From the NCBI GenBank assembly GCA_964016885.1, contig OZ024740.1, positions 179,676,001-179,740,000 of the forward strand: a stretch of DNA of 64,000 bases, written 5' to 3'. The notes under the pieces are model-generated. The model searched no databases, had not been told where the DNA came from, and worked only from the letters and a program-made list of their open reading frames with translations. Of the stretch, positions 24,582-64,000 are shown piece by piece (position 1 is the first letter of the stretch; every line of letters starts with the position of its first letter). This stretch comes from Eledone cirrhosa (taxonomy: Eukaryota). Both the position numbers and the translations under genes were made by a program.

Positions 24582-24612
24582 TCTTCTTCTTCTTCTTCTT
24601 CTTCTTCTTCTT

Positions 24613-24681
<69 letters not shown>

Positions 24682-24692
24682 GTTATTGTTAT
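24582..24692. repeat. (TTC)n(TTA)n tract at the Dong-like 3' end
   Basis: Read directly. Confidence 0.97.
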
Positions 24693-27600
24693 TCCTTGAA
24701 TCTCAGTCATTGATGTTGGTTAACTGGAAAGTCCGTTGGATTGAATATCAAGCCACTACCTGCAGCCTCAGATATTCAGGACGTATCGGAGGGTTCTTGC
24801 TGTTCCAAGCAAGCATGCCTTTTGAAGCGTTCCAAAAAGCGTGAAGGGGCCGATTTTCTTTAACCATCCCTGGAAACCTTTGGAGATAGTCCCCAGTGCG
24901 CCTATGACAATCGGGATCACTTTGACTTCATGGCAGTTCCAAATCCTTTTCACCTCCCACTTTAGGTCCTGGTATCGGTTAATTTTCTCCCTCTCCTTCT
25001 CTTGCACTCTCGTGTCGAACGGGCAGGCCACATCCACAATCAGGCACGATCTTTTTTCTTTGTCCATAACCACCAGGTCAGGTTTATTGTGTTCCAGTTT
25101 TTTGTCCGTCTGTATCCTAAAATCCCACAGCACCTTCACCTGACTGTTCTCCATCACCGCCTCTGGCCTATGCTCATACCATTTCTCAGAATGTGGTAGA
25201 TTGTTTACTTTGCACAGGTGCCAGTGGATCACCCTGCCCATCACATCGTGTCTCCAGCCCTTATAGTGGGTCTGGGCTAGGTGTTTACACTCGGACACAA
25301 TGTGAGCCACAGTCTCCTCTCTCTCTCCACAGATCCTGCACAGTGGGCTAGCCTCCTCCTTGTAGATATGGTGCTTCAACCACTTCGTTTTGAGGGCCTG
25401 CTCCTGCGCAGCCATTAGCATTCCTTCTGTAGCCTTTTTGAGGTCTCCTCTTCTCAACCAGTTCCATGTCTGTGGATCTCTAAATTCAGTTTTCTCAAAG
25501 AAGGTACTATGAAGGGATTTTCCCTTAAGGCTGCTCTTCCTCCTTGATGTTATTTCCTCCTTGGACATCCCCTGGCCTACTGTCCCCTCCTTCAGTACAG
25601 TTCTGAGCATTGGCTCCTTACTATAGGTCACGTATTTGTATAGGTTGTTTTTCTCCATCTGAACACAGTCCTCTATGCTGATAAGACCTCTTCCACCCTC
25701 AGATCTCCTTAAGTAGAGTCTATCGAAATCACTCTTCTTGTGGAACATGTTGTAGATAGTCAATAGCTTCCTAGTCTTCCTATCCATTTCTTTTTGTTCA
25801 GCAACATTCCATCTCAGAATTCCCGCACTGTACCTAATAATAGACACAGCTCGGGAATTTACTGCGCTTATGGCATTTCTGCTGTTCAGATGTGACTTCA
25901 ATACGCTCCTTACTCTCCGAATGTATTCAGTTCTTAACAATTCCTTCATTTTTTTGTTCTTTATGCCATCAGCCTCCAGAACGCCCAAATACTTGTATCC
26001 TTCCTCAGAGTCAATTTCCTTTATCATCTCACCTGTTGGTATCTGGATCCCGTTACTTCTGCTCAACCTACCCCTCTTCATCACAATGACTCCACATTTA
26101 CCAATACCAAACTGCATACATATATCACTGCTGAAAATACGGACAGTGTCAACAAGCACATCCAACTCCTTCTCACTTTTCCCGAAGAGCTTAAGATCGT
26201 CCATGAAGAGGAGGTGATTGATGGTAAGCTCTCCCCTTCCCAACTTGTATCCTGCTCTCACTTTTCGCAGCATAATGGTCAAGGGCATCAGGGCAAGGAC
26301 AAACAACAGAGGGGACAGGCTATCTCCCTGGAAGATACCTCTCTTGATCTTCACGCTTCCCAAGGATACTCCAGTTGATGTCAACTCTGTCTCCCAGGAC
26401 CCCATACTCCTGCCCAGCAACTGTCTGATGTTATCTGCCACCCTGAAGACCTCCAGGCTTTTGGTGATCCAGGAATGAGGCACCATGTCAAATGCCTTTC
26501 TGTAGTCTATCCATCCCATGGCAAGATCAGAGTGTCTCCTCCTGCAATTCCCCATTACCATCTTATCAATAAGCAACTGGTCCTTTGTACCACGTGACTT
26601 CTTTCGGCATCCTTTCTGTTCGTCCGGTAACAAGTTGTTTGTGTGGAGGTGATGGTAGATTTCCTCAGACACAATGCTCGTCAACAGTTTCCACATTACG
26701 GGCAGACATGTGATAGGTCTATAGTTGGTAACATCATTACCCTTGATTCGGTCTTTCAATATCAGAACTGTGGTACCTTTTGTCAACCACTCTGGCACCT
26801 CACCCGACACCAAGCAGTCATTGAACATGGCCGTCAGCTTCGGGTGGAGGGATGTTAAATGTTTAATCCAATACCCCTGCACACCATCTGGGCCTGGTGA
26901 TTTCCAGTTGGTTAGTTTTTTGGCTTGCCCCTTAAGAGTTTCAACTGTGATACTCAAATCAGTCTGTTGTTGTGCCTTCTCACCGATCTCCCTCTGTACT
27001 GTCTCAATCCACCCTGCCTGGGCATTGTGTCTAACATCCTGCTCCCATATTCCTCTCCAGAATGTTTTAGCTTGTTCCGCCCCAGGGATCAAGTCGTTGC
27101 CTCTTTCTTTCCCCTCAAGCTGTCCAAACAGCATCTTCTGGTTGTTGTCGAACATGCGGTTCTGTTTATACTGACTGACTCTGTTCTCGTATCGCCTGAT
27201 TTTGGCACTCTTTGCTACAATGCGTTGCTTCAATTCCTCTATGATAATATTTAGCTTTTTACTCCTAGTTTTGTATTTTATTTCCAGTCTATTTTTAGTG
27301 CCTATGTTTTTTAGTGTCCCATTCAGTAGTGACTCAAGCTTTCCTATGTCATTTCTCATTTCCCCGATTTGCCCACTCAGTCGCTTCTTCCACCACGGCT
27401 CTGCTCTTTCTTGTCTGTTGTTTCCTCTCGCTTTTATACCAAGTAGTTTCCTCACCGTATTTGCTGTTGCTTTGAGGATATTGTTGCACTGGTGAAGACT
27501 CCTCGCCTCAAGGTATGGGATGACTTTGTTTACCTTAGCTGTTGTTTCTTTTAACTTTTTCCTGTCTACAAATCTTAGGTTCATAGGTCTCCCACTATCA

Positions 27601-29242
27601 TTGTTCAATTCATCTACCACTAGATTTAGGATGTCAACCGAATCTTGTCCTAGCCCGTCAGCATTCATCTCCTCAGTGGCCGTATCTCTGTTCCAGGTAT
27701 TATTTATCTCAGTATTCAGATCATTGTCTGCTTCGGGTGGTTCCTCCGTTCTCAGGACCTCCTCACCTTCATTTCCCACCGGCTCGCTTGTCTGGCATAC
27801 TACACCCGCCATCTCCAAGCCATTCTCTCTGCTCAGTTCCTCCAGTTCCAGCTCGCTTATCCACCCATTAGTTCTTATTACCCGAGCCTGCCCGGCCAAT
27901 TTTTGTTCATCTAATTTAAATAAACCAATCTCGTTCCAGATGTTATGCATCCGTCTCCTGTAGCCCCTCTCCTTGGGGATACTTTTCAGGTAGCATTGCA
28001 TAACAGTTCTATTCAATTCTTTCGTCCAGTTGGTTCTGGCCCCTTTCCTTCTTCTTCTTCCTCCAACATCAGCAGTATTTGGTTGACAGTCAGGTTCCTG
28101 CTGCTGAGCCAGGGGGCACCTGTTGGGTGAGAGTCTGTCACATGACGTTCTAGTCTCCATTTCACCGTTATTCGAACTGTTTATGTTCGATATTTAAACA
28201 CTCTTATCGAGGATTGGCGAATGTATGTTTACATAGCCATCTGTGGATCCGCCATCCCACTTGGCCCTTGTGTGGCATTATCACCACGCTGTATACGAAC
28301 ACACATAAACAAACAAACACACGGGCAGAAAGGGCCCCAAAAATGAATAAGCATAAGTTTCATTGTAATGTAGTATTCGAATGTCTGACTTAGTTTTTGT
28401 TTTTTAAGTTTTACTTTTTCCCCCCTCTTCTCTGCCCGTCCGCCTGCTTCTCTCTTCATTCTTATTTTCTTTACGTTTTTGGGGTTTCTTTTTTTGTTTT
28501 TGTTTTTCTCTGTTTGTTTTTCTCGTTTTTTGCTGTTGTTGCTGTGCTGCTTTGGTTTTGTTGTTTGTTTTTTCTTTTTTCTTTTGAGTCTATCTATATA
28601 TTTTGATGCCTTCCTCTTTGTTAGTAGTAGGGATTCTATAATGTGGAAGTCGTAGCAGCCAGCAGGGAGAAGTGGGAGGCTGGCGGCGCTGGCGATACTG
28701 AGACATTGGTGGTGGTGATGTCGATACCGAGGCAGTGGTGGCGGTGATGCGACCGTATTACTGTAGTGATGGTGCTGTAGCGGTGGCAGCAGCAGTGAAG
28801 GAGTGAAGGGGTGGTGGCGGCGGTGATGGGATAGTGGTGGTAATGATGGCCGTAGTGAGCGGTGGCGATGAAGGTGAAAATGCTGTTGTGTTTAGTGTAC
28901 ACAGATGATGGGGTGGATGGTGTATCTAGTTTCTGGTGTTGGTGAGTTTAGCTGTCCTATATAGTGTAGCCAGAGGAGAGGAGGGGGGGGGGGGGTTCTT
29001 CTTCTTCCATTTATAGCCATTTTTTTTTTTGGATATGCAGTGTACAATACAAAGTTGAATATTTGAATATTTGAGCCTTATACCAATATATTTTGGGTCC
29101 GAATTTTTGGGGGCTCAAGCCGGGTGCTTTACGTAGCATTTGTACTAAGAGTTGTTATTTCACAAATGATTTAAATATGTTAAAAATTCAAAACTTACGG
29201 GAGCGATTTCATGACCTCCGTTACCTCGTGCGTCTTCTTCCC
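24693..29242 (-). mobile_element. Full-length R4/Dong-like RLE non-LTR retrotransposon, family A
   Basis: Single long ORF, ~1.08-kb 5' region, short 3' UTR, (TTA)n at both ends. Confidence 0.92.
24768..28160 (-). CDS. Intact 1130-aa R4/Dong-like protein: N-terminal Myb-like region, RT, CCHC zinc motif, restriction-like endonuclease
   Basis: KSPGPDG, YRPITCL, DYRKAFD, QGDSLSP, LFMDD, YKYLG; CRICGEREETVAHIVSEC; RHD; KPDLVV...IVDVACPFD...KINRYQDL. Confidence 0.95.
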   Translation of the reverse strand: METRTSCDRLSPNRCPLAQQQEPDCQPNTADVGGRRRRKGARTNWTKELNRTVMQCYLKSIPKERGYRRRMHNIWNEIGLFKLDEQKLAGQARVIRTNGWISELELEELSRENGLEMAGVVCQTSEPVGNEGEEVLRTEEPPEADNDLNTEINNTWNRDTATEEMNADGLGQDSVDILNLVVDELNNDSGRPMNLRFVDRKKLKETTAKVNKVIPYLEARSLHQCNNILKATANTVRKLLGIKARGNNRQERAEPWWKKRLSGQIGEMRNDIGKLESLLNGTLKNIGTKNRLEIKYKTRSKKLNIIIEELKQRIVAKSAKIRRYENRVSQYKQNRMFDNNQKMLFGQLEGKERGNDLIPGAEQAKTFWRGIWEQDVRHNAQAGWIETVQREIGEKAQQQTDLSITVETLKGQAKKLTNWKSPGPDGVQGYWIKHLTSLHPKLTAMFNDCLVSGEVPEWLTKGTTVLILKDRIKGNDVTNYRPITCLPVMWKLLTSIVSEEIYHHLHTNNLLPDEQKGCRKKSRGTKDQLLIDKMVMGNCRRRHSDLAMGWIDYRKAFDMVPHSWITKSLEVFRVADNIRQLLGRSMGSWETELTSTGVSLGSVKIKRGIFQGDSLSPLLFVLALMPLTIMLRKVRAGYKLGRGELTINHLLFMDDLKLFGKSEKELDVLVDTVRIFSSDICMQFGIGKCGVIVMKRGRLSRSNGIQIPTGEMIKEIDSEEGYKYLGVLEADGIKNKKMKELLRTEYIRRVRSVLKSHLNSRNAISAVNSRAVSIIRYSAGILRWNVAEQKEMDRKTRKLLTIYNMFHKKSDFDRLYLRRSEGGRGLISIEDCVQMEKNNLYKYVTYSKEPMLRTVLKEGTVGQGMSKEEITSRRKSSLKGKSLHSTFFEKTEFRDPQTWNWLRRGDLKKATEGMLMAAQEQALKTKWLKHHIYKEEASPLCRICGEREETVAHIVSECKHLAQTHYKGWRHDVMGRVIHWHLCKVNNLPHSEKWYEHRPEAVMENSQVKVLWDFRIQTDKKLEHNKPDLVVMDKEKRSCLIVDVACPFDTRVQEKEREKINRYQDLKWEVKRIWNCHEVKVIPIVIGALGTISKGFQGWLKKIGPFTLFGTLQKACLLGTARTLRYVLNI

Positions 29243-29297
<55 letters not shown>

Positions 29298-29298
<1 letters not shown>

Positions 29299-30159
29299 GG
29301 CGACCTACGTAGTAAATTGTATCATCGTGATCTCCGCAAAGGTTTGTGATTTTCAGTTGTTTAAAATTGCCATTTATGGAAAATTTTTATTGTTAACTGT
29401 ATATAAGTGCACATACTTTGATTTCTGTAAAGGACACTCAAAAATAAACTTTTTATAATTATCAAACAAAAATTTTTCTTTGAAAAATAATGGATGACTC
29501 AGAGTCACTCCTTCCTCACAATCTAACACCTCACACCGACACCACCATTGTAAATATTGCTACATTTGCCAACACTGGAAATGTAAGCAGTAGCAATATT
29601 TTAAATTTGTCTCAGGCAGACGTTCATTTCCAGCCATTACCTATGACTGCAGGTGTTAAAGCCGCCACCACCACCGCAACAACCCCCCTCCCACCACCAC
29701 AGCGACAACAGAAACAAAAGAAAAAAATAAATTAACTCGTGATATCGAAATGAATTCAACCAAAATGAACTCTTCCACACCGAACACCACTGACGCCACC
29801 ACCACCACCACACCTGAAACTAAAATTAACAATGTGAAAAATAACGATGACAACAACAGCAACAATGAAATTAAGAAAACTACCCTGAGTTTTGCCAGAG
29901 TAGCAAAAACGTGCGAAGCGATCCAGGTAACTCAAGAGGAATTAGTAAAAGCCAAAGGAAGGTAAAGAAAGATGGGTACAGGGTCAGCCCCCCCCCCCCA
30001 CCTAATAAAATGGAGCAACGTCGCCTATGCACCGTGTCTAATCGGACAATTAACATAAAATCGCGCCGAGTGGAACGGGCATCCGAGTCCCAAATTCAAA
30101 AAGCTTTGGGACATGTGTGGGCAAAAATAACCCACATCAGACGTGGGCAGAAGTATGGA
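29298..30159 (+). mobile_element. Tx1-like family A, 5' portion only
   Basis: Starts TGGCGACCTACG directly after (TTA)n; ORF1 N-terminus runs to RRGQKYG and is then interrupted. Confidence 0.88.
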
Positions 30160-30199
30160 TTATTATTATTATTATTGTTGTTGTTATTATTATTATTAT

Positions 30200-31372
30200 T
30201 GCTCTTTGAGTCTCAGTCATTGATGTTAGTTAACTGGAAAGTTTGTTGCAATGAATATCAAGCCGCTACCTGCAGCCTCAGATATTCAGGACGTATCGGA
30301 GGGTTCTTGCTGTTCCCAGCAAGCATGCCTTTTGAAGTGTTCCAAAAAGCGGAGCGGGGCCAATTTTCTTTAACCATTCCTGGAAGCTTTTTGAGACAGT
30401 ACCTAGTGCGCCTATGACAATCGGGACCACTTTGACTTCATGGCAGTTCCAAATCCTTTTTACCTCCCACTTTAAGTCCTGGTATCGGTTAATTTTCTCC
30501 CACTATTCTCTTGCACTCTCGTGTCGAATGGGCAGGCCACATCCATAATCAGGCACGATCTTTTTTCCTTGTCCAAAACCACCATGTCGGGTCTATTGTG
30601 TTCTAACTTCTTGTCCGTCTGTATCCTAAAATCCCATAGCAACTTCACCTGATCCTTTTTTATCACCGGCTTTGGCCTATGCTCACACCACTTTTCAGAA
30701 TATGGTCAAGTGTTTACTTTACATAGGTGCCAGTAGATCACCCTGCCTATCACATCATGTCTCCAGCCTTTATAGTGAGTCCGGGCTAGGTGTTTACACT
30801 CGGATACAATGTGAGCCACAATCTCCTCTCTCTCTCCACAGATCCTGAACAGTGGTCTAGCCTCCTCCTTGTAAATATGGTGTTTCAGCCACTTCGTTTT
30901 GAGGGCCTGCTCTTGCGCAGCCATTAGCATTCCTTCTGTAGCCTTTTTATGGTCTCCTGTTTTCAACAAGTTCCATGTCTGTGGATCTCTGAATTCCGTT
31001 TTCTCAAAGAAGGTACTATGAAGGGATTTTTCATGAAGGTTGTCCTTACTCCTTGTTGTTATTTCCTCCTTGGACATCTCCTGGTCTATTGTCCTCTCCT
31101 TCAGTACAATTCTGAACATCGGCTCCCTACTATCAGTCACGCATTTGTGTAGGTTGTGTTTTACTCCATCTGAACACAGTCCTCTATGCTGATAAGACCT
31201 CTTCCACCTTCAGATCTCCTTAAGTAGAGTCTATCGACATCACTCCTCTTGTGGAACATGTTGTAGATAGTCAATAGCTTTCTTGTCTTCCTATCCATTT
31301 TTTTTTTGTTCAGCAATATTGCATCTCAGAATTCCCGCACTGTACCTAAGAATAGACACAGCTCGGTAATTT
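30200..31372 (-). mobile_element. 5'-truncated Dong-like family A copy
   Basis: ORFs 30706..31140 and 30472..30666 match the C-terminus of the 1130-aa ORF; same 3' end (GAGTCTCAGTCATTGATG on +). Confidence 0.92.
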
Positions 31373-31387
31373 GATTATTATTATTAT

Positions 31388-34300
31388 TTTTTTAAAGTGT
31401 TATTTTTTGTATTATCTTGTCGTTAATGAAACTTAAGGTACACATCTTGAGTTAAAGAGAGAGATACCTCTTAATATTAGGACTTTAAGCCCGAATATCC
31501 AGATTTATAAAAAAAAACTTCGAAAAAAAATCGCTTCCCCACCAAAAAAAATTATGGAAATTTTCGACCTTGAAACGGTAAACAACGTTCAGGTCAAAAG
31601 TTTAAAAGCAGCCACTGTAGATTTCACCACGACTACGACGGCTACAGTCATGCCTGTCATCCACTCTACTGAATGTGAAGGCAAAACTAAAAACTACCAT
31701 CACAACCATCTGTGATAGCATCAGTAACAGCTGAAAACGACATCACCACCACCGCCACCACGACCACCACAACCACAACAACAAGTCAGAGCAATAACGA
31801 CAATAACACCGACAGCATCAATGTAAACACGTATGGCGGTGGCAACAGCATCAACAAACAAAACAGCAACAACAACACCAATAACAACAGCAAGAATGAC
31901 AACACCAACAATAAGAGCATCAGAAGCACCACATTTGCTGCAGCAGCAGCAAAAACAAAGCGCTTATTGAATATTGATATTGATATTAGCGATAAAGACG
32001 AACAGTTGGCCCAAGCGTGGAGGCTAATTAAACGGGAGTAGTCCTGGGCAAACCTGACCATCCCGGACGAGGCAATAGCGGCCATGCAAAGGAGGACGGT
32101 GTTCTTTCGATGCATTTCGGTGCAGACATGAAAAGTGGACCTTGCCAGCCAAGCAGAGGTCGAGGCTGCTTTGGAGTGCATCGGAAGTAACATAGAGTAT
32201 ACAGCAAGAGACAAACAGTTCGGTACCATCTCGGTACTGTTCATAATCGAGGCCCCCGCTATTAAGCACTCGGTGACCCCCTGCAGAACGGAACGCATTA
32301 TCATGCATCCGTCCTACATGGGTAAAAGGACAGCAAAGGTCCGCATTCCCAGCATCCCACCAGGAATGAACATATGGTGGCTGCTGGTATGCGTAATCGA
32401 GGAGGGCACAGACACTACCTCCCTGGATATCAAAAGGACAGAGAGAGAGGACTGGTCCGGAATGGATTTGGAGATTCTTCTCCAAATGAAACCGGAGGAC
32501 ATGAACAACATCCCGGATTTTGCCTGCCTGCAGGACGGGACAACAATCCAAATAATCATTGACGGAAGAAGGCCACGCTGCTTCGTCTGCGGAGAAGCAA
32601 CGCATCTGCAAGCCTTCTGCCCTCACCGGAAAAATGCAGGGGGTCGCAAACCTTATTTGTTACCAACGCCAGTGTCAGCACGGAAAGCTGCACCACCACC
32701 ACCACCCAAAAAAAACACCAACAGAAACACGGACACCAACATCAAAAACAGCCGGATCATCACCAACACCAAAACCAATCCAAGGGGAATACGAGGAAAG
32801 CTCTCCCACTCCCCCTACCCCCAATTATACACATAGACAAAACAATAAACGCACACACAGACACTGAGACACTCACAGCCACAGACCCTTTGTCTTCCAG
32901 CAGCGAAGATGAAGGAAAACCCCAAAGTGCAAAAAAACAGAGAAAACTCACGAAAAAAAAGCCCCAACAAAACACAAAAACATACACAACAAGAAATACA
33001 GACACCACTAACGCAAACGCTTCCCCAATAACATCATCACCAACAGCAACGCGACACCACCTCCACAATCCCCGAAACGCAAACTACCTAAACAAACACA
33101 AGTACAAATAAACACACAAATACCTGAAATTGCAGACACCACACCTACAACAAATACAGACATACCCGAAAAAACACCACCAAAACCATCACCACCACAC
33201 TCACCAAAACGAAAACAAATAAAACCACACCAACAAAATGATAAAACTTCGTGCTTGTCAGAAGGGCCAAAGATAAACTGATGGCCCTCTTATCACGAAG
33301 CGAGGACATTCAAACAGAGGGGGAGATTTTTGAAATGATCTCATTTTGCGTGCCAGATTTGCTTCTGGTCCGAATGTCACTCAATTCCATCAAAGAAATT
33401 CGAGAGAGCTTTCCTCAAGACGTGGGAACCCCGAATGTGAAACCCACATCAAGACATTTAAAGGGGTTCCCAAAAGAAACCCCACCAACCATGGAGGTCG
33501 AACCACCCGACCTTCACAAGACCCTGGGAGGTAAGTAAACCTTCCCTCTCTCTCTTAGCTTACCAATATGGCTATATTAAGAGTAGGATGTTTAAATGTT
33601 CGCGGCCTGGGGTCACCCTGGAAGCAGGGTCTCCTGCTCAACGACCTCAGGTCACTGGAAATGGATGTGATTGCCTTCAGCGAGACCAGAATTTTCGACA
33701 CGCGCGCACTAGCCCCCATTTTCAACGACTATCAGATCTTCGCATCTGTTAGCAGACCGGGAATGGGGTGTGGGGTGGCAATGCAGTTTAGGAAAGGACT
33801 GGATCTCGGGGTAAGGTCGATCTTCCGGGACCCGGACGGTAAGTTGGTGGTCTTGGATGTGAGCAGTAGCGAAGGTGGTGCCTTTAGACTGCTGGCCGTC
33901 TACGCCCCTACATGGGCCGGACGACCGGACTTCTTTAGGCACCTGGAGACCTTTCTGGGTACGTCTCGCCCTTTACTGTTAGTGGGAGACTGGAATAGCA
34001 TCTTAGACGCACGCTGGGATTGGGTGCGAGTAGCCGATAGGAGTGGGGGGTGCAAAAGCTCAAGCAACTATTCAGCCAGTTCCAACTGTCTGACAGGTAT
34101 CGACTAGATTTCCCCAATGTGCCAGTATGGACATGGACCAACCGAATGGGGTCATCTAGATCGTATATAGACAGGATCTTCATTAGGAAAATAGATAGAA
34201 ATAGTGTGGGCTGCCCACTTTTTAAAACGGTCGCCTATTCAGATCACACATTTGTGATCTGTACGGTCGACCTAGATAAAACGCGTAGGTTAGGACCGGG

Positions 34301-37243
34301 TTACTGGAAGCTGAACATGTCATTTCCGGCACGTAAGGCTTACAGGGACCGTGTCAACAATTTAGTTAAGCAAAAGTTGACAGGGGGGATCATCAACAAC
34401 AGATTGTGGGTGTTCTCAAAAGAAAGATTAAAGTAACTTCGATAGAGTTCAGCAAAGAACTAGCGTTAGAGAAAAATAGAAAGGAGGGGGAGCTGGTAGA
34501 TAAGTTAGACGAGGCTATTTGTAGTGGCATCGCAACTGACGTGCTAGCGGCGAGAATGGCATTAGACCATTTCTTCAATGCGAAGCACGAAGGTTGCATT
34601 GTCAGAGCTAAGGCGCGTGCGCTGAAAAAACGAGGGAACCAAAGCTAGTCGATGGGCCCGCGTCGCGGAGGCGCAGCGTGGTAATAAAATCACAATTCGG
34701 CCTTTGGCGGACCGAAACGGACACGAGATAAGCCATTCCAAGCGGTTGTGTGAAGCCTTTCGCCAGCACTTTGCTCGGTTGTTCGGGGGGAGTGGCGAGT
34801 CAGAGAGAGTAGCGGATTTCAGTCCCTACCTTGAAGGTTAGCCGTGCATCTCGACGGTCGACGCTGAGCGCTGCGAAAGGCCGATTACTTCAGCCGAAAT
34901 TCAGGACGCCCTTGTCGGCTGCATAAGGCGCACGTCACCCGGTTTGGATGGCCTGCCCTACGAGCTTTACGTAAATATGCCAGACTTGTTCTCCGAACTC
35001 CTCGAAGCACTTGGTGCAGCAGAATGGGAGTATTCCCAGTTCTGTGAGCAGGGGAGTGGTGACGCTGATAAGGAAAGACGAGAACAAAAGGGATACATTA
35101 GACAACTTCAGGCCCATAACTCTGCTCAACACAGAGTTTAAGATTTTGGCCAAGGTGTTAGCAAAGAGATTGGGGCTTGTCGTCGAGGATTTGGTTGGGA
35201 AGGCGCAAACTTGCGCAATCCCAGCCAGGTCCATACACGACAATCTCTACCTCATGCGATACATAATAGAGAGGGTGGGGTGTAAACCTGGCTTCGGTGG
35301 GGCACTGATCAATTTAGATCAATCGAAAGCTTCGATAAGGTCGACCATCGGTATCTGGAGATTGTTCTCAAAGCAGATGGCTTCGGCCCTGTCTTCAGAA
35401 GCTGGATCGCTGCAATGCACAGCGGCACACGCTCGGTGGTCAAGGTTAATGGCCACCTCTCGGAACCATTTTGGCTCTAACGATCGGTCCGTCAAGGGTG
35501 CCCTCTCTCTTCCCTTCTGTACGTATTGACTCTCGAGCCTTTACAGCGGAAGCTGGAGCTATTGCAGGGCATCCCGCTCGAACCGGGACGTGGAAAGGCG
35601 GTGTCGGCTTATGCGGACGACATCACAGTGATGGTGTCGAACACCTCAGAAATCGAGGTGGTTGCACCTTATTGAAGAAATATGAAAGGTTGACAGGAGC
35701 CAAACTTAACCCGGAAAAGTCGGTGGGCTTGCAGCTCGGAACCTGGAGAGGCAAGCCCATGCCGTCCAATAGCGTCGTGGGGCGCTGGACGGACGGACCG
35801 GTAAAGTTGCTCGGGGTTTGGTTCGGACCAGACCTCCAGGTGGAAAAGAATTGGGACGAGGTAACGAGCAGAGTAGCCAGTCTCACCCATCAAGGGGCTG
35901 GGAAGAAGCTATCACTGAAAAACGCGCGGAGGTGGCGAATGCGTACATCGCGTCCGTCATCTACTACCGCCTGACCGTCGTGCCTTGCCCCCGTCCGCGC
36001 CTCGTCAAGTTGGAACGGCTCCTCTTCAAATTCTTGTGGAGAGGACAAGTTCCGTTGGTGAGGTGGTCCAACTGCTGCCAGCACCCTCTACGCGGAGGGC
36101 TGGGCATGTCGGGGTTAATGATGCGCAGACATGCGCTGAGGCAGCGACATCTCCAGATATTCTGCCTCAACCGTGAACAGGTGTGGTCGCCGTTTATCAG
36201 ACGGGCCTTTCCGCAGCTCATTTCTTTGACTTAGCTGCAGTCCTGGGTGAAGAAGAGACCGAGACTGTGTGACTGGCACCTGGAATGTTGCCAGGCACTC
36301 ACTGCCCTCTACCAAGCGGGAAATGCGATCAGTGGAACTTCCACTCTCCAGTTCTATAGAGGATAGTGGTGGGCAAGTGCGATGACGCACTCGGAGAAGC
36401 TTTGGGCCTCGACGAAGTCGAACTGACCAGTCTGTACCGGAGGACTTTTGAGCCGGGGACGATGGACAATTTCCAGAAATCCCTCGCTTGACAGTGCTAC
36501 CGGGGCACTGCCGGTTCGGGATACACTCTTCAGGCACGGAAGTGCTGTCAGACAGACCTGCCCAAGATGCGCACAGAACGACAAAACCGTTCTGCACGCA
36601 CTTGTCCAATGTCCGTGCATTACTGACTTGTGGAGTTATGTCGAACAGCTACTCTCGCGTGTGGAACGAATCCGGCTATCGGCCGAGTCCATAGTGAAGA
36701 TCGATCCCACGCCTTCCTTAGGTCAGGAAGAGCAGGAAATTTTCCTCTGTCTGGTGGCAGTTGCGAAAGAGGTTATATGGTGGATCAGGTTAAAAGGACT
36801 GAAGACAGACACTTTTCTCTTCGGCCAATCCCTCATCAACTTCTTCAAGTTTCACCTGGTGGAGAGAGAAGTGCTGCCCCCAGTACATTTGCTAAAAGGT
36901 GGGTGAATGCGGTGAGAATGGCTCGTGTGAATGGGCCTACTCTGACCATGAGCCTATAGGGTAGCTAACTTGAGGAGAGGGGTGCTCTCCCTAGGTGCCC
37001 TAGAAGCGCAGGGTGGTTCAGGATTGGTGGGGTACCCGAGTCACCCCAGGGTCGTCCACCCCCTATCGGGGAATTTATTTTGTTATATTTATGCGTATTT
37101 TATTTTATATTTTTATATTTTCATTGTTAAATCAGTCTTGCCATTGTGCACTTTATCTCGACCTTATTGTAAACCCCCACTGTCCCTGTCTTTGTATTGT
37201 CCCCTACATGTCGGCCTTTGTGACTAATAAATGAAATCATTAT
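31388..37243 (+). mobile_element. Tx1-like family B, full length, decayed
   Basis: ORF1 with CFVCGEATHLQAFCP; EN 33568..34107 (NVRGL, FSETR, VYAP, GDWN); RT pieces with YADD near 35610; C-terminal CPRC...H...C; AATAAA then TTATT. Confidence 0.92.
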
Positions 37244-37244
37244 T

Positions 37245-37388: not shown

Positions 37389-37407
37389 TATTATTATTTT
37401 TATTATT

Positions 37408-40774: not shown

Positions 40775-40811
<37 letters not shown>

Positions 40812-48872: not shown

Positions 48873-48953
<81 letters not shown>

Positions 48954-48954
48954 T
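48873..48954. repeat. (TTA)n spacer
   Basis: Read directly. Confidence 0.97.
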
Positions 48955-53800: not shown

Positions 53801-56800
53801 TTGAGTCTCAGTCATTGATGTTATTTAACTGGAAAGTTTGTTGAAATGAATATCAAGGCCGCTACCTGCAGCCTCGGATATTCAGGTCGTATCGGAGGGT
53901 TCTTGCTGTTCCCAGCAAGCATGCCTTGTAAAGTGTTCCAAAAAGCGGGGCTGGACTAATCTTCTTTAACCATCCTTGGAAACTCTTTGAGATAGTACCT
54001 AGTGTGCCCATGACAATCAGCACGACCTTGAATAAATGGCAGTTCCAAATCCTTTTTACCTCCCACTTTAAATCCTGGTACCGCTTAATTTCGTCCCTCT
54101 CCTTTTCTTGCACTCTCGTGTCATATGGGCGGGCTAGATCTACAATCAGGCACGACCTTTTTTCCTTGTCCAAAACCACCATGTCGGGTCTATTGTGTTC
54201 TAACTTGTTGTCCGTCTGTATCCTAAAATCCCATAGCAACTTCACCTAATCGTTTTCTATCACCGGCTCTGGCCTATGCTCACACCACTTCTCAGAATGT
54301 GGTAAAGTGTTTACTTTGCATAGGTGCCAGTAGATCACCCTGCCTATCACATCATGTCTCCAGCCTTTATAGTAGAGTCTGAGCTAGGTGTTTACACTCG
54401 GATACAATGTGAGCCACAGTCTCCTCTCTCTCCCCACAGATCCTACACAGTGGGCTAGCCTCCTTCTTGTAAATATGGTGTTTCAGCCACTTCGTTCCGA
54501 TGGCATGCTCTTGCGCAGCCATTAGCATTCCTTCTGTAGCTTTTTTAAGGTCTCCTCTTTTTAACCAGTTCCATGTCTGTGGATCTCTAAATTCAGTTTT
54601 CTGAAAGAAGGTACTATGGAGGGATTTTTCGTGAATGTTGCTCTTCCTCCTTGTTGTTATTTCCTCCTTGGACATTCCCTGGTCTATTGTTTTCTCCTTC
54701 AGTACAATTTTGGGCATTGGCTCCCTACTATCACTCACGTATTTGTGCAGGTTGTTTTTCTCCATCTGAACACAGTCCTCTATGCTGATAAGACCTCTTC
54801 CACCTTCAGATCTTTTTAAGTAGAGTCTATCGACATCACTCCTCTTGTGGAACATGTTGTAGATAGTCAATAGCTTCCTAGTCTTCCTATCCATTTCTTT
54901 TTGTTCAGCAACATTCCATTTCAGAATTCCCGCACTGTACCTAATAATAGACACAGCTCGGGAATTCACTGCACTTATGACATTCCTACTATTTAGATAT
55001 GATATTAATACGCTCCTTACTCTCCTAATGTTCTCAGATCTTATCAATTCCTTCATTTTTTGTTTGTTCCTGATGTCATCTGCTTCCAGAACACCTAAAT
55101 ATTTGTATCCTTCTTCAGTGTAAATTTCCTTTATCATCTCACCTGTTGGTACCTGGATTCCGTTGCTTCTGCTCAATTACCACTCTTCATCACCAGGACT
55201 CCACACTTATTAATACCAAATTCCATATATATATCATTGCTGAAAATACGGACAGCGTCAACAAGTTCATCCAACTCCTTCTCACTCTTCCCAAATAGTT
55301 TAAGATCGTCGACAAAGATGAGGTTGTTGATGGTAAGCTCTACTTTTCCCAACTTGTATCCTGGTCTCACTTTTCGCAATATAAAGTCAAGGGTATCAGG
55401 GCAAGGACAAACAGCAGAGGGGACAAACTATCTACCTGGAAGATACTTCTCTTGATCTTCACGCGTCCCTAGGATTCTCCACCCATGTTAACTCTGTTTG
55501 TCAGGACTTCATAGTTTTCCTCAACAACTGTATGATGTTATCTGCCATCTTGAAGATCTCTAGGCTTTTGGCTATCCAAGAATGAGGTACCATGTCGAAT
55601 GTCTTTTTGAAGTCTATCCTTCCCATGGCAAAACCACTGTGTCTCTTCTTGCAATTCCTCATTACCATCTTATCAATAAGTAACTGGCCTTTTGTGCAAC
55701 GGGACATGTGATAGGCCTATATTTGGTAAAATATTTACCCTTGATTCGGTCTTTCATTACCAGGACTGTGGTACCTTTTGTAAACCACTCTGCTATCTCA
55801 CCCGACATCAAGTAGCCATTGAACATGGTTGTCAGTTTCGGGCGGAGGGATGTTATATTTTTAATCCAATACACTTGCACACCATCTGGGCCTGGTGATT
55901 TCAAGTTGGTTAGTTTTTTGGACTGCTCTTTAAGAGTGTCAACTGTGATACTCAAATCTCCTTTTGAAATGGCTCAATCCACACTGCCTGACTATTATGT
56001 TCAACATCCTGCTCCCATATTCCTCTCCAGAATGTCTTAATCTGTTCCGCCTCAGGGATCAAGTCGTTGCCTCTTTCTTTCCCTTCAAGCTGTCAAAACA
56101 ACATTTTCTGGCTGTTGTCAAACATGCGGTTCTGTCTATACTGACTGACTCTCATCTCATACCGCCTAATCTTTGCACTTTTTGCTACAATGCGTTTCTT
56201 CAGTTCCTCTATGATAATATTTAGCTCCCCGCTTCCTAGGTTTGTACTTTATTTCCAATCTATCTTTAGTGTCTATGTTTTGTAATGTCCCATTCAGTAA
56301 GGACTCAAGCTTTCCAATGTCTTTTCTCATTTCCTTGATTTGACCATTCAGTCGTTTCTTCCACCAAGGTTCTGAACTTTCTTGTTCGTTGTTTCCTCTC
56401 GTTTTTATGCCAAGTAATTTCTTCACCGTATTTGCTGTTGCTTTGAGGATATTGTTGCATTGAGGAAGGTTCCTCGGCTCAAGGTATGGGATGATTTTGT
56501 TCACCTTAGCTTTTTTTCTTTTAACTTTTTTCCTGTCTACAAATCTTAGGTTCATAGGTTTTCTACTATCATTGTTCATTTTATCTACCACTAAGTTCAG
56601 GATATCAACCAAATCTTATTCTAGCCCGTCATCATCTATTTCCTTAATGGCAGTATCTTTGTACCAGAAGTTATTTATTTCAGCATTCAGATCAGTGTCT
56701 GCTTTGGATGGTTCCTCAGGTCTCTCTACCTCTTCACCTTCATTTCCCACTGGCTCGTTTGCCTGACATACTCCACTCTCCATTTCCAAGTTAATCTCTC

Positions 56801-57018
56801 TGCTTAGTTCCTCCAGGTTCCAACTCGCTTATCCATCCATTATTTCTTATTACCCGAGCCTGTCGGGTCAATTTTTGTTCATCTAATTTAAATAGACCAA
56901 TCTCGTTCCGGATGTTATGCGTCCGTTTCCTATAGCCTTTTTCCATGGGGTTACTCGTCAGGTAATATTTCATGACAGTTCTATTCAATTATTTCGTGCA
57001 GTTGGCTCTAGTCCCTTT

Positions 57019-57152
57019 CCTTCTTCTTCTTCTTCTTCTTCTTCTTCTTCTTCTTCTTCTTCTTCTTCTTCTTCTTCTTCTTCTTCTTCTTCTTCTTCTT
57101 CTTCTTCTTCTTCTTCTTCTTCTTCTTCTTCTTCTTCTTCTTCTTCTTCTTC
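57019..57152. repeat. (TTC)n expansion inside the Dong ORF N-terminus
   Basis: Replaces a 3-4 unit run seen at 28047-28060. Confidence 0.92.
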
Positions 57153-57662
57153 CAACACCAACAGTATTTGGATGACAACCAGGTCCCTGCTGCTGGGCCA
57201 GGGAGCACTTGCTGAGTTCCAGACTCTTTTTCACCGTTATTCGAACTGTTTAGGTTCGACATTTAAACACTCATATCGAGGATTGGTGAATGTATGGTTA
57301 CATAAACACCGGTGATTTTATCACCCCCGGTGATTTTAGCCGAACATAAATAAATAAACAAATAAATAAATAAAAATATAAAAAAAAAACATAAGTTTCA
57401 TTATAATGTTTGAATGTTTGACTTAGATTTTTTTTTTCCCTTCTTTTCCCCCTTTTTTTTCAAGGCCAGTAACATCGGTTACTAGTGGTGTTGTTGCTGT
57501 TGCTGCTGTTTTGATTTTAGCTACGCTAAGCTCGTTGTCATAGCAACGAGGGAGGTAGGGTGTGTTACGTTCAAAACTTTTGAAATTTATTTTTCTTTTG
57601 CTGTTGCGTTTGTTTTTGTCTGTGTTCTGTTCTGTAATGTTTCGACTTGTTGCTTATCATCA

Positions 57663-57752
57663 TTTGCCTTTCACTCTTACGGGGTCGATAAAATAAAGTA
57701 CCAGTATTGTACTGGATAATATGGGCTTGTGCTATATGTAGAAACAATTATT
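57663..57752 (+). mobile_element. Degenerate 3' half of the SINE in the Dong 5' region
   Basis: TTTGCCTTTCA...GGGGTCGATAAAATAAAGTACCAG...GTAGAAACAATT. Confidence 0.8.
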
Positions 57753-58348
57753 ATTTGACATCGTTTAAACTAAACGTCTTGAGAGAGTTTGGAGATACGA
57801 CAATAATTATTATGGTGTTGTTGTTAGCTGTTTGACCGGCTCACTAAATCAGTCTATGTATATCTGTTGGCGACTTCCTCGTTTCTAGTCATGTGTAGTG
57901 GCACTACTACCTCCCCACTCTTAACAGGAGGTAGTGAGGGAATAGTGGTGGTAGCGATGATGATGGAGTGGTGACGGTGTAGTAGTACTGTATTGATGGT
58001 GTTGCTGCTGCTGTTGGTTTGTCTCTAGCTAAACCTTTGTGGTAGTGGTGGTGGTTGCGGCGGCGGTGGTGGCGTTTGTGGTGAAATTATTTGGCTGTTG
58101 TTTTCTCCCATTTGTGACCATTTGTAACCATTTTCTTTTTTGACTATAACATTCCTAATACAAAATGAAAATATTTGAGCCCTATGCCATAGTGTTATGT
58201 GTTGTCACTTCCTAAGAGTTTTGACAGGTGTCTTATGTCCCATTTGTAATAAGAATTATTCTATTACAATTGTTTGAAATATGTAAAAAATCTAAAACTT
58301 ACGAGAGCGATTCCATAACACTCTATCCACCATATGCGTACTTTTCCC

Positions 58349-58379
<31 letters not shown>

Positions 58380-60293
58380 CATTATTATTATTATTATTGG
58401 CGACCTACGTAGTAAATCGTATCATCGTGAACTCCGCAAAGGTTTGTTATTTTCAGTTGTTTAAAATTGCCATTTATGGAAAATTTTTATTGTTAACTGT
58501 ATATAAGTGCACATACATTGATTTCTGAAAAGGACACTCAAAAATATTGGGGCCTTGAGCCCCAAATTTAAACTTTTTATAATTATCAAACAAAACAAAC
58601 TTCTTTGAAACATCATGGCTGACTCAGAGTCATTCCTTCCTCACACACTAACACCTCACACCGACACTACCATTGTAAATATTATTACGTTTGCCAACAC
58701 TAAAAATATAAGCAGTAGCAATATTTTAAATTTGTCTCAGCCAGACATTCATTTCCCGCTATTACCAATGACTGCAGGTGTTAAAAGCCGCCCACTCCGA
58801 ACGAACCCCACCCCCAAACCCCCACCAACACAGTGACAACCCCCATCACCACCACCACAGCGACAACAGAAACAAAATTTAAAAAATAAATTAACTCGTG
58901 ATATCGAAATGAATTCAACCAAAATGAACTCTTCAACACCGAACACTACTGAAGCCACCACCACCACCACAACTGAAACTAAAATTAACAATAACAAAAA
59001 TAATGATAACAACAACAGCAACAATGAAATTAAGAAAACTACCCTGATTTTTGCCAGAGTAGCAAAAACGTGCGAGGCATTCCAGGTAACTCAGGAGGAA
59101 TTAGAAGAAGACGAAGGAATGGTAAAGAAATATGGGTAAAAGTCAGCCTCCCCCCCCCACCTAATAAAATGGAAAATCGTCGCCTATGCACCGTGTCTTA
59201 TCGGAAAATTAAAATAAAATCGCGCCGAGTGGTATGGGCATCCTATTCCCAAATCCAAAAATCTTTGGGACATGTGTGGGCAAAAAACACACACATCATA
59301 CGTGGGCAGAAATATGGAACCGTGGACGCGTTCTTTGAAACACCACAGGAGACCAGAGAACACTCCATGGCCCCATTAAGAAGTGACAACTTCACACTCG
59401 TCCCAAGCTATTGTGGCCAGAAACTTGTGAAGATCAGGGTGACCCACGTTCCACCAGCCATCGAAATTCCCTGGTTAATGGCTGCCGTCCTCGCCGGCAT
59501 CGAGGCCAACACCAAGATAATTGAAATAGCGAAAGAAAAGCAGGAGAACTGGTCCGGATCTGGGATGGAGCTCCTGATCCAAGCGGACCATAAAAGCATT
59601 GAAGAGATCCCAGAGGTAATAGATCTCACTGACGGCAGCCACCTCACCGTAATCGTCGAGGGCAGAAGGGTAGGTGTGTCGTTTGTGGTGAAGGAACCCA
59701 CCTAAGGGCTTTCTACCCTCAGGCTAAAAGGTTGAGGCCACCTCTCTTACCCACCCCAGTGACTCAACCAGCAACACCACTAGCAGCAGAAATGGCAGCA
59801 ACAACTGTAGCAGCAACAACAGAAGCAACTGTAACAGCAACAAGCCCAGCAACAGTAGTAAAACCAACACCACCACTACCCAACGCCCCAGAACTGGCAC
59901 CAGCGCCTACACCATCCACCACGCCACAACCAAAATCAACGCCTGTGGAGAATTTTCCACTCCCCTGCTTATCGCAACTGGAGACAGATTGTGACGACGA
60001 GGAGTGGGAAACGGTATCAGGAAAAAGAAATCAAAAAAGAAAAGAATTCTCTTCCTTCCCCCTCCAAAAACAAAATACAGAGAGAAACAAATAAATTATC
60101 AAACAAAAAAGTTAGGACAGATATGCCACACCATCCACACCAACATCACCAACCCCATCACCATCATTAACCCCAACACCACCATCACCAACACCACAAA
60201 AGTCACCAAAAAGCGTAACAGAAACAAACCCACAACAAACCCAAACAAAACAAAACAACCAAAACGATACACACTACACAGCATTAAATTTGA

Positions 60294-60470
60294 GATTGGT
60301 AGTATCGGTAGAGGGTCGGCCGCCATGCTTTCTAGCATAGTTACGTCCCTTTACGATCTGAGTTCAAATCCCGCCGAGGTTGACTTTGCCTTTCATCCTT
60401 ACGGGGTCGATAAAATAAAGTACCAGTGAGGCACTGGGTAGTTGCTGGCCTTATGCCTAAAGTAGAAACA
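60294..60470 (+). mobile_element. SINE in Tx1 ORF1, TSD ATTAAATTTGA
   Basis: Matches the 19611 SINE; the empty site is visible at 42721-42745. Confidence 0.9.
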
Positions 60471-61910
60471 ATTAAATTTGAACAACAACCAATTATTACA
60501 ATACATCCAACACAACACCAGCATCACAGAAAAAGACTACACAACAACCCAAAAGTTCACACCATCTCCACATATACAAATCACTCGCATCACACAGAAA
60601 ACGTACACGACACTAAAACAAAAAAATCCCTAAATACATCGGAGACTTCCGACAAACACTCTCCAGGAGGATTTATAAGGACATCATTCCGGGGGAGGCC
60701 ACAAGCAGTGAAAATGATGGAGAAACCATCCTTCCTCTACGAAAAGTAAGGTAAGTGGTCTTTCCCATCTTTTCCGCCCTATTTCAACATGACCTCACTC
60801 AGAATAAGCAGCATAAATGCGCGTGGCTTGTGATCGTAATGGAAGCAGGGCCACCTCCCAACGACCTCAGGTCACTAAACATAGATGTAGTGGCCATCAG
60901 CGAGACAAGAATCTCCGAAGCACGGGCCTTCGCACCGATCTTCGGCGGCTACGATGTGTACGCATCCCCCAGCCGTCCGGAAGTTGCTGTGCAACTCCAG
61001 AAGTTGCTGTGCTTTTTCGGAGAGGTTTGGATCTCACCATAGGGGCCAAATTCCTGGTCCCAGAATGTAACTTGGTGGTGAACTTTCTTGGAACGTCCCG
61101 CTCTTTAGTGTTAGTGGCCGACTGGAACGGGATCTAGATGCACGCTGGGACTGTGTGGGATTAGCGGCTAGAGGAGGAGGGTGCAAGAGCCTCACCAACC
61201 TGCTCAGGCGTTTTGAACTGTCTGACAGGTACCGATTGGATTTCCCGAATGTGCCAATGTGGACTTGGACAAATCGCATTGGGTCATCCACATCATATCT
61301 AGATAGAGTATTTTGTAGCCTTACCACCTCCAACCCCCACACCTAATAAAATCGAGCAACGTCGCCTATGCTCCGTGTCATATCGGACAATTAACATAAA
61401 ATCGCGCCGAGTGGAACGGGCATCCGAGTCCCAAATCCAAATAGCTTTGGGACATGTGTGGGCAAAAAAAACCCACCTCACATGTGGGCAGAAGTATGGA
61501 ACCGTGGACGTGTTCTTTGAAACACCACAGGAGGCTAGAGAACACACCATGGCCCCATTAAAAGTGACGACTTCACACTCGTCCCAAACTATTGTGGCCA
61601 GAGACTTGTGAAGATCAGGGTGACCCACGTTCCACCAGCCATCGAAATTCCCTGGCTAATGGCTGCCGTACTCCAAAACAAAATACAGAGGGAAACAAAT
61701 AAATTATCAAACAAAAAAGTTAAGACAGATATGCCACCAGCATCACCAACCCCAACACCACAAACACCAAAACCATCACCATCATTAACCCAACACCACC
61801 ATCACCAACACCACAAAAGTCACCAAAAAAGCGTAGCAGGAACAAACCCACAACAAACGCAAACAAAACAAAACAACCAACACGATACACACTACACAGC
61901 ATTAAATTTG

Positions 61911-62087
61911 GATTGGCAGTATAGGTAGAGGGTCGGACGCCATGCTTTCCAGCATAGTTACGTCCCTTTACGATCTGGGTTTAAATCCCGCCGAGGTTGA
62001 CTTTGCCTTTCCTCCTTACGGGGTCGATAAAATAAAGTACCAGTAATGCACTGGGTAATTGCTGGCCTTGTGCCTAAAGTAGAAACA
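61911..62087 (+). mobile_element. SINE in the duplicated Tx1 ORF1, TSD ATTAAATTTG
   Basis: Same site as the 60294 copy. Confidence 0.9.
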
Positions 62088-62106
62088 ATTAAATTTGATA
62101 ACAACC

Positions 62107-62289
62107 GGTGGATTGGCAGTATCGGTAGAGGGTCGGACGCCATGCTTTGACGCATAGAGTTACGGCCCTTATCATTGTGAGTTCAAATCCCGCCGAGGTT
62201 AACTTAGCCATTCATCCTTACGGGGTCGATAAAATAAAGTACCAGTAATGTACTGGGTTATTGCTGGTCTTGTGCCAAAGGTAGAAACA
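62107..62289 (+). mobile_element. Second SINE at the same site, ~19-20-bp TSD
   Basis: Flanked by ATTAAATTTGATAACAACC and ATTAAATTTGAATAACAACC. Confidence 0.9.
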
Positions 62290-64000
62290 ATTAAATTTGA
62301 ATAACAACCAATTATTACACTACATGCAACACAACACCAGCATCACAGAAAAAGTCTACACAACAACCCCAAAATTCACACCACCTCCACACATACAAAT
62401 CACTCGCATCACACAGAAAACGTACACGACACTAAAACAAACATTCCCCAAAGACATCGGAGACTTCCAACAAACACTCTCCAGGAGGATTTATAAGGAC
62501 ATCCTTCCGGAGGAGGCCACAAGCACTGAAAATGATGGACAAACCATCCTTCCTCTACGAAAAGTACGGTAAGTGGTCTTTCCCATCTTTTCCACTCTAT
62601 TTTAAACATGACCTCACTCAGAATAAACAGCATAAATGCGCGTGGCTTGGGGTCGTCATGGAAGGAGGGCCACCTGCTCAACGACCTCAGGTCACTAAAC
62701 AGATGTAGTGGCCACCAGCGAGAGCAGAATCTCCGAAGCACGGATCTTCGGCGGGTACGATGTGTATGCATCTCCCAGCCGTGCTGGATCGGGGGGAAGA
62801 GTTCCTGTGCTTTTTCGGAGAGGTTTGGATCTCGCTATACGGGCCATCTTCCAGGACCTAGAGGGTAAGTTGGTGGTGCTGGACGTGACCAGCGGAGACG
62901 GCCAAGCTTTCAGGCTAGTGGCCGTCTATGCGGCGACAGGAGCAGGGCGGCCTGATTTCTTCCGGCGTCTGGAGACCTTTCTTGGAACGTCCCGCTCTTT
63001 AGTGTTAGTGGGCGACTGGAACGGGATGTTAGATGCACGCTGTAACTGTGTGGGATTAGCGGATAGGGGTGGAAGGTGCAAGAGCCTCACCAACTTGCTC
63101 AGGCGTTTTGAACTGTCTGACAGGTACCGATTGGATTTCCCGAATGTGCCAATGTGGACTTGGACAAATCGCATAGGGTCATCCAGATCATATCTAGATA
63201 GAGTATTTTGTAGGGAAATAGATAGGTCTAGCATAGGCTGACCACAATTCAAGATAGTCATCTACACGGACCATAAATTCGTGATCTGTGTGCTTGACTT
63301 AGATAGGCTTCATAAACGATGACCCGGCTATTGGGAGCTAAACGCGTCCTTACCAGCGCGCAAGGTCTACAGAGACCGGATTAGCGAACTAGTTAAGCGG
63401 GCGTTGACGGGGGCCATCGTCAACAACAAGTGGTGGTTTGCTCTGAAAAGAGCGATTAGAATAGAATCGATTAGGTTTAGTAAGGCTTTAGCAATAGAGA
63501 AAAATAGAGCAGACGGAGAAATAGTTAGAAAATTAGACGAGGCGCTTAGCAAAGGCATTGCGACCGACGTGCTTGCGGCGAAATTGGCGCTTGAACAATT
63601 TTTCAATGCAAAGGACGAAGGCTGCGTTGTCAGAGCTAGGGTGCGTGCTCTCAGACACGAGGGGACGAAAGCCGTTCAATGGGCCCGAGTGGCGGAGTCG
63701 CGTCGTGGCAACAAAGCCACGATCCGGTCTTTGGTGGACCACAACGGGCGCATGCTACTCGATCCTGGGCAAATGTGTGAAGATTTTCAGCGACACTTCG
63801 CTCAGCTGTTCGAGGGCAGCGGTGAGCCGGGTCGAGCGATGGACTTTAGGGTCTACCTCGACGGACTGCCGCGGCTCCCGGCCACTGACGCGGAGTGTTG
63901 CTAAAGGCCGATAACAGCCGCTGATATACGGGAGGCAATGACTGGCTGCACAAGGGGTAAATCGCCTGGTTTGGATGGTCTTCCCTATGAACTTTACGTA

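Follow-up and report, generated by a model that had tools for sequence, protein, structure and literature searches.

What could set two unrelated kinds of retrotransposon side by side, many times over and in opposite orientations? This question is raised by a 64,000-nucleotide stretch of the Eledone cirrhosa genome (assembly GCA_964016885.1, contig OZ024740.1, positions 179,676,001 to 179,740,000 of the forward strand), hereafter called the window, which holds an array of long interspersed elements (LINEs) separated by tracts of TTA and TTC. One kind, called Dong here, resembles the Dong/R4 elements and encodes a restriction-like endonuclease (RLE), and the other, called Tx, resembles the Tx1 clade and encodes an apurinic/apyrimidinic endonuclease (APE). 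An initial annotation of the window had proposed that each kind inserts with a fixed polarity, opposite to that of the other, into the microsatellite they share. The analysis described below leads us to conclude that the two families very probably hold such a polarity at (ATT)n throughout the genome, and that independent insertions, one after another, likely built the array.

Polarity at (ATT)n across the genome

Exact-pattern counts, which are lower bounds, gave 1402 Tx-A1, 1687 Tx-A2 and 1381 Dong 5' ends in the genome of 2,996 Mb, together with 6936 Tx-A and 5093 Dong-A 3' ends. ATTATTG stood directly upstream of 1323 of the 1402 Tx-A1 5' 28-mers, and (ATT)4 directly upstream of 1627 of the 1687 Tx-A2 5' 21-mers; three further Tx-type 5' ends met in the sampled loci were flanked by ATT as well. 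Junctions at the 5' side were also scored by hand in 80 ten-kb regions picked by 3' end. An ATT tract preceded 35 of the 38 Tx junctions that were readable among 40 (28/28 full-length, 7/10 truncated), and an AAT tract preceded none. For Dong-A, 32 of 40 junctions lay on a tract reading TAA or GAA in the sense direction and none on a tract of opposite polarity, while the remainder comprised one weak tract, one TAG tract and six junctions without a tract. Full-length Dong 5' ends were on a tract in 28 of 30 cases, five of these loci overlapping the earlier samples. As a background, only 14 of 19,964 21-mers from 14 evenly spaced 10-kb regions matched (ATT)n at 16 or more of 21 positions. At full-length and truncated 5' junctions alike, the sense strand of Tx reads ATT and that of Dong reads AAT. 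The initial annotation had named a genome-wide tabulation of flank and strand as its check; the counts and samples given here showed no random polarity and revealed a microsatellite at the 5' flank of most copies, which upholds the proposed polarity.

A tract was also present at all 30 Dong 3' ends sampled, and CTT and a few other trinucleotide tracts serve as sites too. The two families tend to occur together: within the first 55 Mb of the contig, 36 of 55 Dong 3' ends had a Tx 3' end no more than 15 kb away, compared with a mean of 2.1 and a maximum of 9 in 2000 draws of a uniform-random null that ignores genome compartments. Of these 36 close pairs, 31 were antiparallel and 5 parallel. Among neighbours that share a tract, 208 of 216 pairs followed the polarity rule.

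The array and its elements

With neighbouring DNA included, the array spans window coordinates 24584-68347 (about 44 kb) and thus continues past position 64000, the end of the window. It is interstitial, at 179.7 of 442.9 Mb on the contig, with unique DNA on its left and a TTA followed by a GTA tract at its right end. Two more regions of this contig carry arrays of about 25-45 kb, so that the one studied here is one of many. Copies were called from self-comparison, Pfam, translated searches and junction read-outs, and the edges from neighbouring DNA. This gave eight Dong and four Tx copies, of which seven Dong-type RLE copies (minus strand) and the four Tx-type APE copies (plus strand) lie inside the window. 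The parts are as follows:

24584-24694, plus: (TTC)19(TTA)13 tract with imperfect units, left edge, unique DNA on its left
24695-29242, minus: Dong-A, full-length RLE LINE, open frame 24768-28193, about 99% identical to copies elsewhere
29243-29296, plus: (TTA)18 separating head-to-head Dong and Tx 5' ends
29298-30159, plus: Tx-A1, 5' 860 bp, 3' side cut, probably by deletion or recombination
30160-30201, plus: TTA/TTG tract
30202-31372, minus: Dong-A, 5'-truncated, followed by (TTA)4 at 31375-31386
31387-37243, plus: Tx-B, the second APE LINE family, near full length, frameshifted, with APE, reverse transcriptase (RT) and zf-RVT
37244-37408, plus: short interspersed element (SINE) with internal deletion (37244-37387) and TTA tract
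37409-40078, minus: Dong-B, 5'-truncated
40079-40134, plus: imperfect TTA tract
40135-40540, minus: Dong-A, 3' part of about 400 bp
40541-40776, strand not assigned: 236-bp piece without a match among the loci compared, parting one Dong from its tract
40777-40809, plus: (TTA)11
40810-46410, plus: Tx-A1, full length, frameshifted, internal deletion of about 280 bp; open reading frame (ORF) 1 with CCHC knuckle, ORF2 with APE, RT and zinc finger
46411-46446, plus: (TTA)12 separating tail-to-tail Tx and Dong
46447-48867, minus: Dong-B, 5'-truncated, breakpoint unlike those of the other two
48868-48953, plus: TTA tract, about 28 units
48954-53649, minus: Dong-B, full length, 5'-terminal region like that of Dong-A
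53650-53799, plus: TTC tract, about 50 units
53800-58348, minus: Dong-A of an older subfamily, full length, with a SINE fragment at 57663-57758
58349-58397, plus: TTA tract separating head-to-head 5' ends
58398-66237, plus: Tx-A1 with internal duplications and three SINEs (60294-60474, 61909-62091, 62107-62293), ending beyond the window
66275-68288: young Dong-A, the eighth Dong, beyond the window, followed by the right-edge TTA/GTA tract
1-4861, minus: separate Tx-A1 copy outside the array, same rule, 5' flank (TAA)11(GAA)n at 4862-4936

Domain and junction read-outs bore out the seven minus-strand and four plus-strand copies of the initial annotation, as well as its head-to-head junctions (29242/29298 and 58348/58398) and the tail-to-tail junction at 46410/46447. 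At its other tail-to-tail junction (37243/37409) both tails are in place, but a SINE sits between them. The first Tx (1-4861), on the minus strand with an (AAT)n 5' flank, obeys the same rule, as had been noticed. Nearly all copies are indeed bounded by TTA/TTC tracts; the (TTC)44 at 57021-57152, however, lies inside a Dong and marks no junction, and its counterpart in the other full Dong-A copy is a (TTC)4 at 28049. Within the Dong N-terminal coding region, the copy at 53800-58348 has expanded a (GAA)4 to 44 units. The Dong copies of the array fall into two families, and so do the Tx copies. Secondary rearrangement is visible as well: the Tx at 29298 is cut on its 3' side, and the one at 58398 carries duplications within it.

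The two RLE families, Dong-A and Dong-B, share 32-48% protein identity. Dong-A at 24695-29242 contains one frame of 1141 amino acids from stop to stop, which matched RVT_1 in Pfam (E 1.7e-23) and whose closest Protein Data Bank (PDB) matches were R2 proteins. The protein carries a CCHC motif at residue 952, followed by RHD (981), KPD (1037), D (1054) and E-K (1069), a pattern that we take to be that of the restriction-like endonuclease. A C2H2 pattern was found in the first 400 residues of none of 121 proteins, the query included; to our knowledge, the R4 clade has no N-terminal C2H2 zinc fingers, unlike R2 and NeSL/Utopia. Dong-A thus joins the single ORF with RT, C-terminal CCHC and PD-(D/E)xK restriction-like endonuclease expected of R4/Dong with a Dong-type (TAA)n target on the sense strand, as given by the 32/40 and 28/30 5' junctions above. 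Rfam returned no ribozyme match (two sub-threshold matches were taken as chance), and two custom descriptors of a hepatitis delta virus (HDV)-like ribozyme, run without a positive control, found it at 0/18 and 0/30 Dong 5' ends and at no Tx 5' end. The Dong 5' region folded no better than shuffled sequences in three copies.

The Tx copies of the array belong to families Tx-A1 and Tx-B. An intact ORF2 of 1139 amino acids, found at locus L144, matched Exo_endo_phos, RVT_1 and zf-RVT in Pfam and gave no RNase H match there; ORF1 shows a CX2CX4HX4C pattern with a Pfam score below the cut-off. An ORF1 followed by an ORF2 with APE, RT and C-terminal zinc knuckle and without RNase H is the architecture of the Tx1 clade, and target-specific insertion with target duplication, also a Tx1 trait, was found as well (94-96% ATT-flanked 5' ends; 13-16 bp duplications at three sites). 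The top PDB match of ORF2 was human L1 ORF2p (171 bits, residues 5-855), in a database with few other clades, and the endonuclease alone matched only L1 endonuclease chains in PDB. The Pfam domains, motifs and PDB matches together support the two unrelated endonuclease types, APE and RLE, that the initial annotation had named. Tx 3' ends fall just past an AATAAA-like signal and enter the tract without poly(A). In contigs of two sequencing runs of unrecorded type the families were high-copy; joints in these contigs were not used.

Two side observations concern the 5' ends. Tx-A1 and Tx-A2 (loci L144 and L119) share ORF2 and the 3' untranslated region (about 94%) and differ in the 5' untranslated region and ORF1, as in L1 5' replacement. 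Furthermore, a splice-donor-like GT motif lies 27-50 bases inside every LINE 5' end examined (minus strand at 29190-29242, 58295-58348 and 53600-53649; loci L179, L142 and L144), where a near-identical 14-base stretch is common to Dong and Tx-C/D (shuffle p about 0.002, post hoc). This motif may be an internal promoter or a U1-binding element common to unrelated LINEs.

The SINE, present in the window at 37244-37387, 60294-60474, 61909-62293 and 19614-19803, has 53,840 exact 3' 30-mers in the genome. In 51 full copies, ATT came next in 47, 15 lay inside an ATT tract and none followed an AAT tract; among the 36 copies outside tracts, 15 had a duplication of at least 10 bp (median 15), and 10 of those were scored as starting with ATT. 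Its 3' end is like those of Tx-B, Tx-C and Tx-D (shuffle p 0.0005, 0.005 and 0.023, from eight uncorrected tests, the value for Tx-B taking in the shared ATT letters), weakly like that of Tx-A (0.09) and unlike that of Dong (above 0.39). Judged from these sequence likenesses, the SINE likely uses Tx proteins, with looser targeting than Tx itself. The idea that all SINEs are plus-strand insertions in tracts did not hold, since three lie inside Tx at ATTAAA sites and those of the flanks occur on both strands; a plus-strand bias exists only locally, at ATT. A search of the window with ARAGORN yielded no tRNA.

Growth of the array and the basis of its polarity

At three imperfect sites, Tx copies were flanked by duplications of 16, 13 and 15 bp, each starting with ATT; one of the three lies antisense inside the ORF1, rich in AAC/AAT, of a second Tx copy. 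A duplication of 13-16 bp within a perfect tract copies about five units, and both sides stay targets. These duplications therefore explain target regeneration, which the initial annotation had ascribed to each insertion. The spacer between neighbours has a median of 10 units, which would require slippage or long starting tracts.

As the initial annotation had supposed, the array itself points to separate insertions rather than duplication of a cassette. Of the array segments that have a paralogue inside the array, all 14 are closer to a copy outside it, and the best identity outside the array ranges from 88% to 99% per segment, which indicates that the insertions were spread over a long time. 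Dong truncation points all differ within the array. The two youngest Dongs (24695-29242 and 66275-68288, 99% identical to their relatives) are located at opposite edges, hinting, in this one array, at outward growth. Tract-sharing neighbour pairs comprised 62 tail-to-tail, 55 Dong-Dong, 49 head-to-head and 42 Tx-Tx pairs, where about 58, 58, 46 and 46 were expected from the margins (calculated by hand, at loci chosen on element ends). Strict alternation of the families was rejected, as these counts fit a random order, and head-to-head pairs are therefore not favoured but a mere by-product. The bipolar look is thus less surprising than it seems: two families of fixed polarity on an asymmetric repeat lie opposite to each other half the time, their order is random, and TRAS/SART offers a precedent.

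Several points weigh against fixed polarity and growth by separate insertions. All sampled loci are on contig OZ024740.1 and were retrieved by exact match, and hence represent younger copies. A clear tract was missing at 3 of 38 Tx and 8 of 40 Dong junctions, and an exact 12-base tract was found on only 2817 of 5093 Dong 3' ends, because the Dong 3' end is imperfect. No clean Dong target duplication could be read in 24 copies. Eight of the 216 neighbour pairs were flagged: three inverted tracts, in which each element follows its own side, two SINE mis-hits, one small inversion, one CAT tract, and one genuine same-sense Dong/Tx contact at a rearranged locus. Other arrays hold local duplications with identical breakpoints, for instance an 806-bp Dong-B piece that occurs twice, 100% identical and broken at the same point, and a 1554-bp piece repeated at 98% identity. 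Finally, the elements were named Dong/R4 and Tx1 from their architecture, target and Pfam/PDB matches; among what the homologue, cluster and Atlas searches retrieved there was no named R4, Dong or Tx1 sequence.

Two explanations would do without targeted insertion. The tracts might be simple-repeat tails of the elements, with neighbours merely abutting them, and indeed a tract stands at the 3' end of nearly every copy and in one Dong an AAT run borders the interior of a Tx. However, tracts are found at 5' ends too, including edge copies beside unique DNA, and since truncated 5' ends also lie on them, the tract is the target and not a tail. Only one to three units are present at some 3' ends: some Tx ends show a single ATT followed by CTT, ACT or non-repeat DNA, so that a long tract is no obligatory tail, and some Dong ends have two AAT units only. 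The truncated junctions largely refute this explanation, which we consider very unlikely. An origin of the array through duplication of a Dong-Tx cassette, whether segmental or tandem, seems hardly credible to us. The motif tract-Dong-tract-Tx does occur twice (24584-30159 and 53650-60293), and such duplications contribute to some other arrays, but the two cassettes are only about 85% identical, and the outside relatives and differing truncation points described above led us to reject this origin for the array in the window.

Target-primed reverse transcription is the established chemistry of LINEs, and under it the AAT strand would serve as primer for Tx and the ATT strand for Dong. Each insertion would leave tract on both sides for later insertions to use, slippage would re-lengthen the duplicated tracts, so that every insertion would add a landing site, and older arrays would be reworked by deletions, inversions and unequal exchange. 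Whether the endonucleases prefer one strand is a separate matter, since pairing of the RNA 3' end (AUU in Tx, AAU in Dong) with the primer would give the same polarity, and polarity alone is no proof of strand-preferring nicking. We regard such pairing as quite possible, though we lean somewhat against it; it would replace only the nicking step, and both enzymes might then cut TpA steps, which are present on both repeat strands, on either of them. ATT always continues Tx 3' ends, Dong ends carry a fixed imperfect AAC/AAT unit, and the SINE lands at short ATTA sites without tracts, all of which agree with pairing. On the other hand, long tracts are occupied by Tx LINEs far more often (35/38) than by the SINE (15/51), and target choice in the Tx1 clade and RLE elements is ascribed mainly to the endonuclease (PMC4494074). 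The divergent promoters, convergent transcripts and piRNA output envisaged in the initial annotation are hypothetical. It is also conceivable, but rather unlikely, that the host keeps arrays as dual-strand sources of small RNAs. As a direct consequence of polarity, either strand carries one family in sense and the other in antisense, read-through is plausible given Tx ends without poly(A), and Drosophila telomeric retrotransposon arrays are piRNA clusters (PMC10088271). Yet random neighbour order and neutral targeting already explain the layout: head-to-head and tail-to-tail pairs would follow from polarity and random order, with no need of a host function.

A broader scheme may be sketched, which we hold to be improbable as a whole. 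The sharing of (ATT)n by APE and RLE lineages would yield thousands of self-extending arrays, each with read-through transcripts antisense to the other family; these would be self-assembling, mutually silencing small-RNA clusters and a main cause of transposable element (TE) hotspots in cephalopods, with Tx driving the SINE (more than 50,000 copies) and a promoter or splice-donor-like motif shared at the 5' ends.

Other arrays provided two further observations. Loci L193-L194 and L204 (55.44 and 55.54 Mb on the contig) show local tandem duplications with identical breakpoints, and runs of three to four full-length Tx-A2 copies at 98-99% identity. A third repeat family ends in an ATT tail on which Tx and Dong land (upstream flanks of L117 and L185; L013, L055 and L127), and other retroelements may seed new arrays through such tails.

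Known systems and further repeats

The closest working parallel is TRAS/SART of Bombyx, two groups of target-specific LINEs that insert in opposite orientations in (TTAGG)n and form arrays (PMC10088271). The likeness lies in two LINE groups set opposite in one short repeat and building arrays. TRAS and SART, however, are both R1-clade APE elements at telomeres, whereas an RLE and an L1-group APE element meet here at thousands of loci; with an interstitial site, an ATT target and an RLE partner, the system works like TRAS/SART without belonging to it. Dong targets TAA microsatellites in Bombyx, Anopheles and Biomphalaria (PMC3812793), and in Bombyx the amplified Dong 5' junction included TAA repeats upstream of the element (PMC3774820). 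Dong of Eledone has the same TAA sense polarity and a single ORF with RT, CCHC and RLE motifs, but also uses GAA-sense tracts. Bombyx Dong bears a self-cleaving HDV-like ribozyme at its 5' end (PMC3774820), whereas none was detected here with Rfam and the two descriptors lacking a positive control. Among Tx1-clade APE elements at microsatellites, Kibi, Koshi and crocodilian families target (TC)n, (TTC)n, (TTCC)n and (TTTC)n (PMC4494074); CTT is a secondary target in Eledone, and (ATT)n the main one. In crocodilians, SINEU shares the target preference of Tx1-Mar, more weakly than the LINE (PMC4494074), as the present SINE does with Tx, although the target there is a DNA transposon and here ATT.

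RLE, Tx1 and R1 are recognized as three target-specific groups (PMC4640811), and R4-Dong is almost confined to cephalopods among molluscs (PMC10294476). In O. vulgaris, Dong-R4 and L1-Tx1 were recently active and 288 TE hotspots were counted; the portion of that paper available to us gives no target sequence, polarity or hotspot cause (PMC13282606). Other octopus papers, to the extent accessible, describe Dong-R4 and L1-Tx1 as expanded or active but name no targets (PMC8967140, PMC9115989). Literature searches turned up neither a Tx1 family that targets (ATT)n nor microsatellite arrays in which APE and RLE elements are mixed, and the available parts of PMC3747384, PMC4758252 and PMC3124438 contain nothing on them; a prior description is possible, e.g. 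the supplement of PMC4494074 may list more targets. Each ingredient has a precedent, while the combination and its scale appear undescribed.

These findings offer a testable cause for retrotransposon pile-ups in a 3-Gb genome in which Dong-R4 and L1-Tx1 are likely major active families. They add (ATT)n to the targets of Tx1-like elements, point to the likely LINE partner of a highly abundant SINE, and present two unrelated endonucleases that share a substrate in nature, with which enzyme and RNA tail can be compared as setters of polarity. Short-read insertion callers are predicted to miss new Dong copies, because these land in repeats inside arrays, and such missed insertions may bear on the low Dong polymorphism of O. 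bimaculoides (PMC9115989).

Two more repeats were observed in the window outside the array. An element of 2.9-3.4 kb occurs in three copies (8668-12088, 16106-19532 and 20548-23439) that are about 90% identical and alternate in orientation; it has an RT-like frame without a Pfam match and is presumably Penelope-like, judging by its motifs. At 14105-15908, a unit of 450-650 bp with a G-run and (GAA)18-30 is repeated in direct and inverted copies that are 97-98% identical, and it is found in other loci too.

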